Assembly (NCBI GenBank): GCA_051599415.1
Contig: AP039698.1
Coordinates: 62,001-126,000, forward strand
Reading direction: 5' to 3'
Source of the DNA: Savitreella phatthalungensis
Taxonomy: Eukaryota
Length of the DNA: 64,000 nt
Shown here in pieces: positions 35,748 to 40,924 of the stretch; the first letter of the stretch is position 1; each line of letters starts with the position of its first letter. A program made the translations under genes and the position numbers. Under the pieces are notes generated by a model. The model searched no databases, had not been told where the DNA came from, and saw only the letters and a program-made list of their open reading frames with translations.

Positions 35748-36169
35748 GAACCCGCGATCTCAGACAGCGTCTCGGTCCTTGGATTACAGTGCTCTTACGT
35801 ATCTATGTCCCGTATGTAGACTGTTTTGACGTCGTGTGCCTGTCAGATGCTGCACGTGAACATCTAAGATTGATCTGGTGTTTGGAAATGTGGCACTCGA
35901 TTGGAGCAATTGTGGCTGGAGGATGCTCTGATCAAATTCTCACGGATGCTTCGAAATCCCTGAATTATTGCTACATGCTGGCGGAGGAACACTTCGCCTG
36001 TTTGCCTAGTGTACTGCGCTGTAGGGATCCTGTCTCGGATGTGCCACTTGGCACGCACGCAGGCACACTCGCAGGCACACGCGGGAAGCTTCTACACAAA
36101 AGACAGACCGTCACTCAAAAAGTCTTCATTGACCTTGAGGACACGATTTTGAATCGAGAGAAGTCGATC

Positions 36170-36625
36170 ATGCAGCTCTTTGTCCGTGGGGACAACACTT
36201 TCACCGTCGACGTTCCGGCGTCGGCGTCCGTTCGCGACCTCCAGGTCGCTGTCGCCTCGAAGGCTGGCTTTGCCGTCGAGGAGCAGCGCCTGGTGTTTGC
36301 CGGCCAGCAGCTCGAGGAGGCTTCCTCGCTCGCTGAGTACGGCGTCACTTCGGCCTCGACCATCAATCTCGTCTTCCGCCTTTGCGGTGGTGCGAAGAAG
36401 CGCAAGAAGAAGGTCTACACCACCCCAAAGAAGATCAAGCACAAGCGCAAGAAAGTCAAGATGGCAGTGATCAAGTACTACAAGGTCGAGGGCGATGGCA
36501 AGATCCAGCGTCTTCGCCGTGAGTGCCCTGCTCCTTCGTGCGGTGCCGGTGTCTTCATGGCCAACCACAAGGACCGCCAGTACTGCGGCAAGTGCGGTCT
36601 GACCTACATGGTCCAGAAGTCGTAA
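36170..36625 (+). CDS. RPS31: 40S ribosomal protein eS31 (S27a) fused to a divergent 74-aa ubiquitin-like domain
   Basis: ATG 36170; UBL ends LVFRLCGG, followed by canonical [18 protein letters not shown]...[22 protein letters not shown]. Strongly C/G-ending codons. Confidence 0.95.
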
Positions 36626-36732
36626 ATATAGTTCTTCGGAATTCTATGTCCGCGACCGAAATTGGAGACTGTGTGTGATGAACAAGGTGTTTTGACGTGA
36701 GCAGTGTGCACTCTGCGTGACAGCGGTGAGCT

Positions 36733-36764
36733 CTATCTGATATGCAAGCTATCTGATATGCAAG
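36733..36764. repeat. Perfect 16-bp tandem duplication
   Basis: CTATCTGATATGCAAG x2. Confidence 0.9.
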
Positions 36765-37668
36765 TTGACCGGTTGACTCGAACTCCTGTGCGGCAGAATG
36801 ATATCCGTCCGTGCTAGACGATGCGCTACAGACATAGTTCCGATGAGCCAGCGATGGAAATGTGGTCACCTTTGTGGACTACACTGCAGTCCATAGGTTG
36901 CACTGGGTGCGCTGGAGCGGCCGGACAAAGCTTTCTGAGGACACACATACACACGAAGGTCACCTCTATCGTCAAAATGCTGATTCGATCAAGGAGGAGA
37001 GAGCATTGTAACAGAATGATGATGCCAGCAACGATGGTGACTCCCGTGTGTAAGACTGCAATGACTAGTTCTATGTACAGTATACCGGATTGCCATGCAT
37101 CTGGAGAATGTCCACGTGCAGTAAAAGTTCTACGATCATTGTGCATACTCATCAAAAGATTGGTTACCTACGGATAAAATCTCTGAGTGGCTCGACTATT
37201 GAGATCTGGAAATAATGACAATGATGAATGATCACTTTCAGAGTCAAAAACGGAAGCGGAAAGGGAAGAAGAAGAAGATTGATGCACCTTGGCTTTCTCT
37301 GCTTGATCAGAATGACGCGAACATCGAATCGGCTTATTGACTGTTCAGACTAGATGCTCGGGAAGCCATCCATTCAGAATTATATCTCACCTGGAATACA
37401 CTCGAAAGCCATTTTGAGAATAGGGCAAGTGTACACATATTTACGAACAATCTATGTACTGATTGATTCATTTTAACCCTGTTCAAGTGAAGTCAGAAGC
37501 ATCACCATAGCGGTTATACACGCACACATACACACGTACAGATATACATACACAGATATACACACGCGGGGTGATGAAGATAATCACAGCCAGGTTAGGC
37601 GAGGAGGATCAATCTATAGTAAGTGATAGCAGATACTGATACATCCTGATAAGCCTTAACCACATCAG

Positions 37669-37710
37669 GAGTCCACAAGAGTCATAAGAGTCACAAGAGT
37701 GACGAGAGTC
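37669..37710. repeat. Degenerate ~9-bp tandem array (GAGTCAcaa)
   Basis: GAGT(C/G) at 37669, 37679, 37688, 37697, 37706. Confidence 0.75.
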
Positions 37711-37956
37711 GATAGGAAACCGTCAGTTCAGTAGACCACGCGAAAGGTCGCCAATAGCCCTTGTCATTGAGTTGTAGACTCCATTTCACTATTGCGCGCA
37801 CTCCCTCCGTTCTGTACGCCAAAGCGCATCCACCAAACGCACTCTATCTTGCGCCTCCCAACACCAGCGCAATCGCTCTCAAACCCAGAAGTCTCTCGCG
37901 CGCGCGTGGACGATCACACTCCATCACAGTATCACTCATCTCAAGAACGACCAACC

Positions 37957-38589
37957 ATGGCTGACGAGTACTTCTCTTCACGCGCGAGGCCTATCACGAT
38001 TGGCTCCTCTCACATCTCTGCCGCTTCACCATCTACATCGTCGTCGGCGGTACAGATGCCTAGGACTGCGCCTGTGACGGGTGGTGTGAGCGTTGACAGT
38101 CTACCTGGGAAGCATTCTCGAATGACGGATGTGGGTGGCGGGCTGGGTTTGAGCCATGGCAAGTCACCTGCTATCGCTTCACCGACCACGACGACATATG
38201 CGACCTCGCCCGGGATGAGATACCTCAGCTCGTCCATCAGATCGAACGACAGTTACGCGGTGTACGAGCTCGGTAGCCACCATCGCCCACGCTGGGCAGG
38301 AGTTCCATCGAGCAGCAGCAGCAGTAGTACTGGTAGTGCGGATGATTACCACCAACAGCACTATCTCCGACCTGCACCACTCATCGTCTCGTCGAGTGTG
38401 CAGGGGTTTGAGTGGTCAAAGGACGTTTTCATAAGCCGGTATGGTCAGGAACGATACTTCTCTCACGAGACGAACGCTTCTGCCGCCAATGCAACAGGCG
38501 TGGCTGACGCCGACGGCACACACAACTCACATATCCAGGCAATCGACATCTACCTCGATGACGATGATCGTCTATTTGACGACCTATGA
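37957..38589 (+). CDS. Small Ser/Pro-rich hypothetical protein with C-terminal SQGFEW..D.F and IDIYLDDD motifs
   Basis: ATG 37957 in good context (caaccATGG); 210 aa. Confidence 0.75.
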   Translation: MADEYFSSRARPITIGSSHISAASPSTSSSAVQMPRTAPVTGGVSVDSLPGKHSRMTDVGGGLGLSHGKSPAIASPTTTTYATSPGMRYLSSSIRSNDSYAVYELGSHHRPRWAGVPSSSSSSSTGSADDYHQQHYLRPAPLIVSSSVQGFEWSKDVFISRYGQERYFSHETNASAANATGVADADGTHNSHIQAIDIYLDDDDRLFDDL

Positions 38590-38695
38590 TCCTAGCAACC
38601 TCCAATCCTCAAACGCCAACAGCCTAAATGACAATGCAATGATATCAGATGAAATTGACCTCGACCAACCAGTCAAATACGTGTGAGGTGAACGT

Positions 38696-40924
38696 TCAAG
38701 TGGCGACTCGTACCAGCCTGGCTTTCTTCGTCGTTGTGTTGTCATCTTGCGCCTGGTTTTGCTGCTGCTGTTGTTGATGTTGTTTGGGAGTAGGGCCGGA
38801 GTTTGATTTGGCTGAGAGTCCTGCTTTCTTGCCACGATCGCTAGTCACTCCTGTCGGCGGTGAACGCCATTGCGACCCAACAGAAGTACTACCGCCGCCG
38901 CGACCGCTCCCGGAAGCTGGCATGACCACGAAAGGGAACGCATGTGTTCCTGTCCTCTTCGTCATTGTTGCCTTCGGTGCCGATGACGACGACTGTACAA
39001 AGTCGGTCGATTGGGGGTAGGTCGGAGCCAGGGTCGTGTACGTCGGTGGTATCCAAGCTTGTGCAGCTCGAATGTGTACGTCGTCTAACGAGGTCTGATC
39101 GGAATTCTGCAACGCCGTCGACAAGTCGTTGGAAATGGTGATGACTGGTGACTGCGCCGCCGCCAGCGTGCCGTTCGTCGTGAAAGAGGCGTGTCTGGTT
39201 TTTGGCGACGCAAAGATTCCACGGTTCAAACGCGCGGCGGAAGTTCTTCGTCCAGCAGCAGCTTTATCATCGCCCTCGTCATCGTCGTCATCAGCGATCG
39301 CTGAGTCGTCATTAAGTGAGACTTCACCATTGAGGCCTCCTGAACCTGGCGCTGCATGTGCGATCGTCCAAGCGCCACTGCCATCATGAAGATGCCCTTC
39401 GGCGGAAGTGTCCTCGCGAACGAGCGTTGACGGACGCAAACTGTCTGGCATGGACATTGGATCGACTGCCGCTGATTCCGGCGTTGACGCAGGCGACTCC
39501 GTCAAGTCAAGTGGTGGCAGATTGGCTGCGAGATCAGGCACGGGCAGGCCCAGGGCGAGCTCTCGGCGCATGACGGTGATGGTATGTTTGCGCCAGTCGA
39601 CATACCTAAGAGTAAGCGGCTTCGTGTCTGCTGCGTTCGTCGATCCCGACTCAATTCCGGGAATGAGGAAACGGCCCAACCAGCGGTCACGCACACCGTC
39701 GTCCCAAACTAGGCCGGCCATGGCATTACCGAGCGGCACGTGGGTCAGCAGCAGCTCAGATAGGACGAGCTCAAGTCGATCGGCGAGTCGATGATGTAGT
39801 GCCGATTGTGCTGCAGAGGACATGAGCGGTGGAGGCGCATCGGGTAAGGCGACCGTACCGATAGGCGGTGACGACGTCGTGCTAGCATTGCCGCTATTCC
39901 CGGACAAGGTAACGTGGGACAGCGCATCGAGGGCGGTCAGGTGAAGCGCATTGAGATACAGTTTTCGAACTTCACCTCGGGTGGGTGCATGGTAAGGTTT
40001 GGAAGTAGCTGGTAACTTGTCGTCGTCTTCGTCCCCGTCGTCTGGTAGGCAAGCCAACCAAGCGGCTATTTCAGGAAGTGGTGGCATATTCGCCAGACAA
40101 GCTTGACGGTTAGGCTGTGCGGACGACGCCGATGTATCACCATTGGTGAGGCCGGTTGCGACCGCTGTGAGTGGCAGAGATCTGCCTGCACGCCAGGCTG
40201 CACATAGCTTTTGCCAGTTCGGCAATCGAGCGAGCTCATCGTAGACCGCGGAGGGACGTACACCGGGCGGGTGCTGCATCAGTCGGTTCGTTGCATCTGC
40301 TGGACACCAATATGATCCGTGCGATCTCGTGGAGTTTTGAGCTGAAGGATAGGCGTGGGAGTCTACGTGGACGAGGGTCCGAGCTAAAACGATGAGTCTA
40401 CAGCGGCGCTCGAGCATGCAGAGCTCGCAATCAGGTCGGCGATCGAGTCGAACGATGAGTGGTTGCCTTCTGAGCAAGGCCACCGCTGCAGCCTGCCGGC
40501 TCTGTGAGGTGACTGGTCGCCGAGCTGTCCCGCGCTGGACGACAGTGTCTGTCGAGCTGGGATTGCTGGAAGCTGCAGCCACATTATCGAGTACCATGCT
40601 GTCATGTCGCGGCGTCGATACTGTGTCATCGTGCGTATGTCTGTGACGGTCGAATTGTGCTGCATTGCGAAGAAGTCCTTCGGCCAGACTGGGGAGTGGG
40701 GTGGTGTGCGCGACAAAGTCAGCAGCTGTCTTCTGCTGCAGCAGTGACGTGGCTGCTCGGCGCGTGTCGCCGAGAAGGGAGTGACCCGCAGTGTAGAGCA
40801 GATAGTCGACAATGCGAGAATTCGTCGAGGTGCAACGTCGACGCTTGGAAGGTCGTATCTCAGTTGTTACGTTACTCATGAGAACGTCCTGGCCATTGGA
40901 AGGAAGAGGGTCGCGAATGCTCAC
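38696..40924 (-). CDS. Hypothetical protein, 742 aa
   Basis: Long ATG-started ORF; NLS-like RPSKRRR, one CxxC (PDCELC), disordered C-terminus. No family recognised. Confidence 0.7.
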   Translation of the reverse strand: MSIRDPLPSNGQDVLMSNVTTEIRPSKRRRCTSTNSRIVDYLLYTAGHSLLGDTRRAATSLLQQKTAADFVAHTTPLPSLAEGLLRNAAQFDRHRHTHDDTVSTPRHDSMVLDNVAAASSNPSSTDTVVQRGTARRPVTSQSRQAAAVALLRRQPLIVRLDRRPDCELCMLERRCRLIVLARTLVHVDSHAYPSAQNSTRSHGSYWCPADATNRLMQHPPGVRPSAVYDELARLPNWQKLCAAWRAGRSLPLTAVATGLTNGDTSASSAQPNRQACLANMPPLPEIAAWLACLPDDGDEDDDKLPATSKPYHAPTRGEVRKLYLNALHLTALDALSHVTLSGNSGNASTTSSPPIGTVALPDAPPPLMSSAAQSALHHRLADRLELVLSELLLTHVPLGNAMAGLVWDDGVRDRWLGRFLIPGIESGSTNAADTKPLTLRYVDWRKHTITVMRRELALGLPVPDLAANLPPLDLTESPASTPESAAVDPMSMPDSLRPSTLVREDTSAEGHLHDGSGAWTIAHAAPGSGGLNGEVSLNDDSAIADDDDDEGDDKAAAGRRTSAARLNRGIFASPKTRHASFTTNGTLAAAQSPVITISNDLSTALQNSDQTSLDDVHIRAAQAWIPPTYTTLAPTYPQSTDFVQSSSSAPKATMTKRTGTHAFPFVVMPASGSGRGGGSTSVGSQWRSPPTGVTSDRGKKAGLSAKSNSGPTPKQHQQQQQQNQAQDDNTTTKKARLVRVAT

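Follow-up and report, generated by a model that had tools for sequence, protein, structure and literature searches.

The ribosomal protein eS31 (S27a) of the 40S subunit is described as being made with ubiquitin fused in front of it, and for yeast Ubi3 it is reported that the fused ubiquitin acts as a cis-chaperone and that the uncleaved fusion is harmful (PMC8122580). In several lineages the ubiquitin moiety of this fusion (UbS27a) has changed. It is highly divergent in Caenorhabditis (Jones and Candido, 1993, as cited in PMC10457151) and in 12 further species, including nine protists of six phyla (Catic and Ploegh, 2005, via PMC10457151), and in Plasmodium falciparum 24 of its 76 residues match ubiquitin (Dalhuisen et al., 2023, PMC10457151); the same pattern is reported for Guillardia (PMC6332867). 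Many surface residues of yeast ubiquitin can reportedly be replaced with no growth defect (PMC10457151). In the Giardia variant the ubiquitin fold is kept, and a chaperone role only has been proposed for it (Catic et al., 2007, via PMC10457151); it is reported to stay uncleaved on the ribosome (PMC3684764, PMC11354881), with non-cleavage linked to G75A (PMC11354881).

A comparable arrangement is FUBI, the ubiquitin-like domain (UBL) fused to eS30 in the animal FAU protein. FUBI is 36% identical to ubiquitin, has a single lysine at the equivalent of K27, and is reported from holozoans only; its diglycine 73-74 is required for cleavage, and conjugation has been suggested for it (PMC8354635). It has a two-residue deletion around Leu8, and Leu72 replaces Arg74 of ubiquitin (PMC10611586). 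According to the same source, USP36 uses FUBI residues His11, Phe13, Pro47, Gly69 and Met71, the set of FUBI-specific residues for USP36/USP16 being these five and Leu72, and an analysis cited there holds that S30-fused ubiquitin became a UBL three independent times (PMC10611586).

Here we describe a gene for eS31 in which the fused moiety derives from ubiquitin and is no longer ubiquitin. The gene lies in a 64,000-nucleotide stretch of the Savitreella phatthalungensis genome (contig AP039698.1, positions 62,001 to 126,000 of the forward strand), which is referred to as the window. Like the Plasmodium, Caenorhabditis and protist genes, it combines a diverged moiety with a conserved S27a half, and a release from homogenisation, and from selection to supply ubiquitin, would be a common explanation for all of them. 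It differs from the Plasmodium gene, whose moiety keeps 76 residues, in having a 74-aa moiety with a deletion in the Leu8 loop, and its lineage, fungi of the Taphrinomycotina type, stands apart from the nematode and protist cases. Giardia lamblia UbS27a resembles it as a distant ubiquitin variant on S27a with the ubiquitin fold kept, but the Giardia junction carries G75A and is reported as uncleaved, whereas GG is intact in 11/11 members of the fungal clade described below. A literature search on Taphrinomycotina or Taphrina ubiquitin-S27a found no description of this clade's gene, although the 1993 and 2005 species lists may include fungi, and one on Cryptococcus S27a with a ubiquitin-like moiety found no paper whose title or abstract deals with the moiety.

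Gene Structure and Reading Frame

A single unspliced ORF of 151 aa at window positions 36170-36625 (+) encodes a UBL followed by canonical eS31/S27a. The features of the locus, with the evidence for each in brackets, are as follows:

36170, + strand: start codon ATG (ORF translation)
36170..36391, + strand: ubiquitin-like domain, 74 codons, ending in Gly73-Gly74 (translation, PF00240, alignment, AlphaFold2)
36392..36622, + strand: eS31/S27a moiety, opening with a basic extension (AKKRKKK...) and containing a Cys4 zinc ribbon (PF01599, alignment)
36623..36625, + strand: stop codon TAA (sequence)
36163..36661, + strand: transcribed span, unspliced, poly(A) tail following 36661 (contigs of run X2)
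35975..36169, + strand: in-frame upstream stretch within the public 216-aa model P0004, probably noncoding (starts of relatives, starts of contigs)

Residues 4-71 match the Pfam ubiquitin family PF00240 (E about 1.3e-16 to 6.2e-16; 60.6 bits against a cut-off of 25.4), and residues 100-145 match PF01599, Ribosomal_S27 (E 5.9e-26). The S27a half retains all four zinc-ribbon cysteines and is identical to the S27a of Ustilago trichophora (P0079) at 53 of 67 positions. It is canonical, as a preliminary description made from the DNA letters had stated, and translation of 36170-36391 gave exactly the 74-residue moiety quoted there. Both parts lie in one ORF, and their junction, GG/AKKRKKK, is the same as in canonical fusions; architecture, junction, basic extension and zinc ribbon are those of yeast Ubi3/RPS31 and human RPS27A. 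The strong codon bias that had been noted in both halves was borne out, ENC being 33 in the UBL half and 26 in the S27a half compared with 43-58 in the other ORFs of the window (n = 23), and GC3 being 0.78 and 0.83, respectively, compared with a mean of 0.59 in the same 23 ORFs.

The public model of this gene, P0004, starts from an upstream in-frame ATG at 35975. All ten relatives (10/10) begin with MQ(L/I/V)F, matching the start of the UBL and not the ATG of P0004. The lowest contig starts are at 36163 in run X2, 36146 in X3 and 36089 in X4, and none reaches 35975, which is a weak hint in the same direction; X2 has no cover over 35875-36162, and such a gap is not evidence of absence. The 216-aa model is probably about 65 residues too long at its 5′ end.

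The neighbouring genes are unrelated to the fusion and comprise a gene for a PPR protein upstream on the minus strand, genes for a C2H2 zinc-finger protein and VID27, and two further ORFs without a Pfam match.

Comparison of the Moiety with Ubiquitin and FUBI

Aligned with the ubiquitin moiety of the canonical fungal Ub-S27a P0079, the UBL was identical at 29/74 positions and different at 45/74, in agreement with the approximately 29 matches of an earlier hand alignment; in canonical Ub-eS31, by contrast, this moiety is true ubiquitin. HMMER alignment to PDB ubiquitin chains showed a 2-residue gap in the Leu8 loop and the substitutions I44V, K48Q, K63S, H68N and R74C, every one of which the preliminary description had listed, including the absence of K48 and K63. 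Its placement of the only lysine also held, since the sole lysine of the UBL, K31, lies opposite K33 of ubiquitin. Phe4, Arg42, Val70, Arg72, Leu73 and GG (ubiquitin numbering) are kept.

The significant PF00240 match and the predicted beta-grasp (below) place the moiety among ubiquitin-fold domains, and two better-defined assignments within that group were rejected. Ubiquitin proper, with its near-invariant 76 aa, is ruled out by the 29/74 identity, the 2-residue deletion, K48Q and K63S; K48 is essential in yeast ubiquitin. Given that the moiety is not ubiquitin, the gene cannot contribute ubiquitin to the cell, and annotation should leave it out of any count of ubiquitin genes. NEDD8/Rub1 has Ala at the position of ubiquitin Arg72 and is made as a stand-alone precursor. 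This assignment is excluded by Arg70 of the UBL, equivalent to ubiquitin Arg72 and present in 10/11 clade members, and by the fusion of the domain to S27a.

An AlphaFold2 run on a 21-sequence alignment predicted UBL residues 1-70 with a pLDDT of 85-93 per ten-residue block and the order beta-beta-alpha-beta-beta-3(10)-beta, which is the ubiquitin beta-grasp; the basic linker was predicted to be disordered and the zinc ribbon was of middling confidence. The top Foldseek matches of the model were all ubiquitin, with a target-normalised TM of about 0.9 and an rmsd of about 1.1 Å (for example 4wzp_G: TM 0.94, target-normalised, rmsd 1.1 Å, 38% identity). Ubiquitin fusions led a structural search with one chain per 40% cluster, among them 3vdz_B (Z 14.7, 73 residues, rmsd 1.1 Å, 38% identity), and FUBI bound to USP36, 8bs3_B, was matched with Z 12.7 over 73 residues (rmsd 1.7 Å, 36% identity), the alignment spanning model residues 1-74 on chain residues 1-73.

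The comparison with FUBI was made through the 8bs3_B structural alignment and the residues named in PMC10611586. Both proteins place a 74-aa UBL before a small basic 40S protein, and the two UBLs have in common the two-residue deletion in the Leu8 loop, a single lysine and the GG end. Arg74 is replaced in both, by Leu72 in FUBI and, in the fungal clade, by Leu in 8/11 members and by Cys in the window. The fusion partners differ, being eS30 for FUBI and eS31 here, and at the six FUBI recognition residues the window UBL has Phe11, Val13, Gln47, Phe69, Leu71 and Cys72, a match of 0/6; of the six, Leu72 alone recurs in the clade (8/11 members). The preliminary description had called the moiety FUBI-like, and this stands for the form, that is for the length of 74 aa, the loop deletion, the scarcity of lysines and the GG end, but not for the recognition residues. 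Membership of the FUBI family is ruled out by the S27a/eS31 partner and the 0/6 recognition residues, and we take convergence to be the best account of the resemblance.

Searches with the UBL alone, which the preliminary description had proposed, recovered fusions of the clade and no other copy of the UBL. Against proteins of 40-130 aa there were 2 candidates, neither of which scored. Against longer proteins there were 6 matches and no other copy, which is weak evidence, the word index being insensitive; five of the six were clade S27a fusions, one of them the window's own model, and the sixth was P0272. In this 352-aa ENA protein a start resembling a signal peptide precedes a near-canonical ubiquitin domain (MQLFVKTLTGK...), which closes with RLSGPP in place of RLRGG and is followed by a long unrelated tail. 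The ESM Atlas returned generic 77-aa ubiquitin-like clusters only.

Expression and Copy Number

Run X2 shares its sample with the likely source. It is labelled 'DNA?', but its poly(A) end and depth contrast lead us to take it for RNA. A 455-letter X2 contig spans 36231-36661 at a word depth of 20,714 and its loose end is a run of 24 A, and a 98-letter contig spans 36163-36260 at a word depth of 18,948. The flanking X2 contigs have depths of 139 and 557, which makes the gene about 37-150 times deeper, contig depth being a rough measure and contig ends a weak hint of transcript ends. The X2 contigs are collinear with the gene, without gaps or joints, and the poly(A) end lies 36 bases past the stop codon. 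Together, the poly(A) end and the depth contrast indicate an abundant unspliced mRNA, and this agrees with the strong codon bias of both halves; expression is as high as for a ribosomal-protein gene, in the window as in canonical Ub-eS31. The X2 contig of depth 557 is 24,988 letters long and starts at 36635, within the last bases of the eS31 mRNA, and a 272-codon Ser-rich open frame lies at 37771-38589 (+) in the stretch 36635-38700; this stretch may be an unannotated gene or the long UTR of a neighbour.

Copy number was assessed in the 12.7 Mb of contigs of run X1, which is likely the source DNA, with matching at a threshold of 80% nucleotide likeness. No second S27a copy was found in X1 at a likeness of at least 80%, and the source contig alone matched. 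Runs X3 and X4, from samples of other organisms, yielded short pieces of canonical Ub-S27a with unmatched ends (...STLHLVLRLRGG), which indicates that the method is able to detect such genes; no canonical Ub-S27a pieces were found in X1 or X2 at the same likeness of at least 80%. The eS31 gene is the only copy detected, which argues against a second similar gene, while a second copy diverged beyond the 80% threshold would be missed. The case that the preliminary description had named as refuting, in which this copy is silent or evolves neutrally while a canonical Ub-S27a stands behind it, was likewise not seen in the X1 contigs at a likeness of at least 80%. Near-identical contigs of the gene itself occur in X3 (36146-36534) and X4 (36089-36424). 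The 4 differences listed between them and the window (36190, 36328, 36349 and 36367) are all third-position synonymous and lie inside the UBL; the X3 contig has one further difference, which lies outside this list.

Relatives with the Same Short Form

A whole-protein search gave 2347 proteins at E ≤ 1e-5 among 2417 candidates, of which the best 120 were listed. Among these best 120 of 2347, ten relatives share the short UBL-S27a form, namely the proteins of Protomyces and Saitoella and eight ENA or Logan proteins, and the form is not special to this genome. The eight ENA or Logan proteins are the closest among the matches listed (70-85% identity); Protomyces lactucae-debilis P0011 is 73% and Saitoella complicata P0013 71% identical to the window protein. 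The moiety of the relatives has 74 aa (75 in P0005) with the same loop deletion, and its tail follows the pattern VF-R/T-L-L/C/R-GG. A quick UBL tree unites the 11 rows in a single clade (SH-aLRT 98) whose earliest branch is Saitoella. Over these 11 members the mean pairwise identity of the UBL is 68% (minimum 51%) and that of the first 67 residues of S27a is 91% (minimum 81%), the window S27a being identical to those of the ten relatives at 56-63 of 67 positions. Across the clade there are 25 invariant UBL columns, 11/11 members have a shortened Leu8 loop, and the Gly-Gly-Ala junction is kept in 11/11, with GG present in 21/21 rows of alignment A1. The distribution of individual UBL features over the clade (ubiquitin numbering) is as follows:

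GG, Leu73 and Arg42: 11/11 clade members
Arg72: 10/11 clade members
K27-equivalent: 10/11 clade members, lost in the window
K33-equivalent: 10/11 clade members
K48: 0/11 clade members
K63: 1/11 clade members
UBL net charge of -1 to -5: 11/11 clade members (ubiquitin 0)

The S27a part of the same 11 members has a net charge of +17 to +21. The description of the UBL as almost lysine-free is correct for this species, where the near-absence is extreme, but does not extend to its relatives, which hold 2-3 UBL lysines. Since the fold, the junction and a third of the columns have been kept since the split of Saitoella from the Taphrina-like fungi, we judge from the alignment that the UBL is under purifying selection, and that this selection is far weaker than that on ubiquitin. 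The earlier argument against decay of the gene also gains from the intact GG in 11/11 members, the 25 invariant columns and the high expression.

In five of the relatives (P0005, P0010, P0012, P0014 and P0016) the predicted protein stops at ...CGKW, where the window reads ...CGKCG. Such ends fit an intron inside the Cys codon, TG/GT being read through as TGG. This intron would be absent from the window gene and may have been lost here.

Two metagenome scans were made. No relative was among the 363 pattern matches to the UBL alignment. With the whole protein as query, 213 relatives were found and 80 of them retained; a GG-basic junction was identified in 70/80, every legible moiety being canonical ubiquitin, and none in the other 10. 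A representative whole-protein search showed no new divergent form among the 150 rows listed, which were mostly polyubiquitins and mispredicted canonical Ub-S27a.

Divergent Moieties in Other S27a Fusions

Among the matches listed, 81/111 proteins with a GG-basic junction have a 76-residue moiety that is identical to ubiquitin at 70/76 positions at least. Divergent moieties were found in two Cryptococcus species (42-43/76 identical), Tremella mesenterica (47/76) and Sporobolomyces blumeae (48/76), and the S27a-fused moiety of the nematode Trichuris has 59 residues identical to ubiquitin. Divergent S27a-fused ubiquitin is already on record as recurrent (PMC10457151), and the Cryptococcus, Tremella and Sporobolomyces proteins show it in fungi outside the clade.

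Three further 74-aa forms have the same loop deletion, P0119 from Trebouxia, P0055 and P0064, the moieties of the last two being identical to ubiquitin at 58 and 51 of 74 positions, respectively. P0119 comes from a green alga (Trebouxia sp.), and its moiety resembles those of the fungal clade in starting with MQLFVR and ending with RLLGG. The S27a half of P0119 does not look fungal, matching the window at 47/67 positions, and in the UBL tree the protein falls outside the clade. When the 14 short forms were held together in the tree of the S27a half (67 columns, poorly resolved), the AU test rejected the grouping at p 0.023, the group having been named after the UBL tree was seen. This rejection implies that the loop deletion arose more than once.

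The S27a halves of Tremella P0111 and Saitozyma P0059 are identical over 67 residues, while their moieties match ubiquitin at 47/76 and 76/76 positions, respectively. This contrast indicates that the two halves of the fusion uncouple freely, and on these comparisons the pair would represent a recent uncoupling within Tremellomycetes. Position 74 has changed repeatedly among divergent S27a-fused moieties in alignment A1: Arg74 has given way to Cys in the window, Saitoella, Sporobolomyces blumeae, Trichuris and two Cryptococcus species, and eight clade members and Trebouxia have Leu there.

Discussion

We consider it likely that the UBL serves as a cleavable cis-chaperone tag for eS31 that no longer feeds the ubiquitin pool. 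The parts of this reading that concern the gene, the fold, the expression and the clade are near certain, and the origin of the moiety from ubiquitin is likewise shown here; cleavage, a chaperone role and a lack of conjugation of the UBL we infer. The proposed course of events would begin in the ancestor of Saitoella and the Taphrina-like fungi, where the ubiquitin of RPS31 was presumably no longer kept identical to the other ubiquitin genes. The RPS31 moiety would then have diverged in place, by loss of two Leu8-loop residues and subsequent drift to a dedicated 74-aa UBL. In present-day cells the UBL-eS31 precursor would be translated as one chain, in which the acidic folded UBL may aid the synthesis and solubility of the very basic eS31, as ubiquitin does in yeast Ubi3. 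A ubiquitin-type protease would cut after Gly74, and eS31, now starting at Ala75, would enter the 40S subunit. The released UBL, without the Leu8 loop, K48 and K63 (in 10/11 members), would have no ubiquitin role and form none of the usual chains. Selection would hold the hydrophobic core, Phe4, Arg42, Val70, Arg72-Leu73 and the Gly-Gly-Ala junction, and these are the needs of a domain that has to fold, to serve a basic partner and to be cut off. Such a tag would be functionally parallel to FUBI in animal FUBI-eS30, by convergence. Judged from residue retention, some use by the ubiquitin machinery is possible, Arg42 and Arg72 being contacted by ubiquitin enzymes.

Three other accounts of the moiety were weighed against this one, and the fate of the junction bears on the first two. 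If the UBL were uncleaved, eS31 would carry it permanently at its N terminus in the mature 40S subunit, as in Giardia, where the S27a variant is reported to be uncleaved and a structural part of the ribosome (PMC3684764; PMC11354881, which names G75A); the Leu8 loop and Arg74, both contacts of many deubiquitinases, are indeed altered in the UBL. An uncleaved domain would have no need of an exact junction, yet Gly-Gly-Ala is found in 11/11 clade members and GG in 21/21 rows of A1, and Leu73 is invariant; uncleaved Ub-eS31 in yeast and FUBI-eS30 in humans are also reported to impair 40S maturation (PMC8122580, PMC8354635). We regard a permanent domain as quite unlikely. The same retention of GG, together with the equivalents of Arg72 (10/11) and Arg42 (11/11), would suit a freed UBL that acts as a new GG-terminated modifier, through the ubiquitin machinery or enzymes of its own; very high expression would supply a large free pool, and conjugation has been suggested for FUBI (PMC8354635). 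But GG and the tail are required for cleavage anyway, and surface residues vary, with UBL identity down to 51%, where dedicated partners would imply more conservation. There is no dedicated E1, E2 or protease gene beside the locus, and the UBL-alone searches, insensitive and hence weak as evidence, gave the S27a fusions of the clade and one unrelated 352-aa protein. The preliminary description had put forward such a modifier as one of its two interpretations; we found nothing in its support and think it unlikely.

The moiety might also still be ordinary ubiquitin, activated by E1 and tolerated as a variant, given that the fold, Phe4, Arg42, Val70, Arg72, Leu73 and GG are kept and that yeast is reported to tolerate many surface replacements (PMC10457151). 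Against this, 45/74 aligned residues differ, the Leu8 loop is short, K48 is gone in 11/11 members and K63 in 10/11, and if it joined the ubiquitin pool, a chain terminator made at ribosomal-protein levels would do harm. This makes ordinary ubiquitin very improbable and leaves the cleavable tag as our preferred reading.

A wider idea, which we think rather unlikely as a whole, is that ubiquitins fused to small, strongly basic 40S proteins repeatedly reach a FUBI-like design, are handled by a dedicated protease of ribosome biogenesis and, once freed, possibly act as modifiers. The design would consist of 74 aa through loss of two Leu8-loop residues, Leu or Cys in place of Arg74, loss of K48 and K63, and a net acidic charge, and it would have arisen independently in Taphrinomycotina, in the Trebouxia alga, in the lineage of P0055 and P0064, and in animal FUBI. 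If this were true, it would mean selection for a tag that is ignored by ordinary ubiquitin receptors and most deubiquitinases, and the repeated arrival at this design is perhaps the part worth following up.

The gene of S. phatthalungensis represents a further lineage of a phenomenon that is recurrent and already described, and its relatives are present in public sets under generic names. To that phenomenon it adds an old, clade-wide fungal case of an S27a-fused ubiquitin that has not been conserved, together with evidence of expression. The parallel with FUBI in loop deletion, tail change and lysine loss offers a natural replicate for the drift of ribosomal fusion partners to this design. Some of the carriers, among Saitoella, Protomyces and the Taphrina-like yeasts, can be cultured, and with such carriers the cleavage of the tag, the protease responsible and the role of the free domain become testable.
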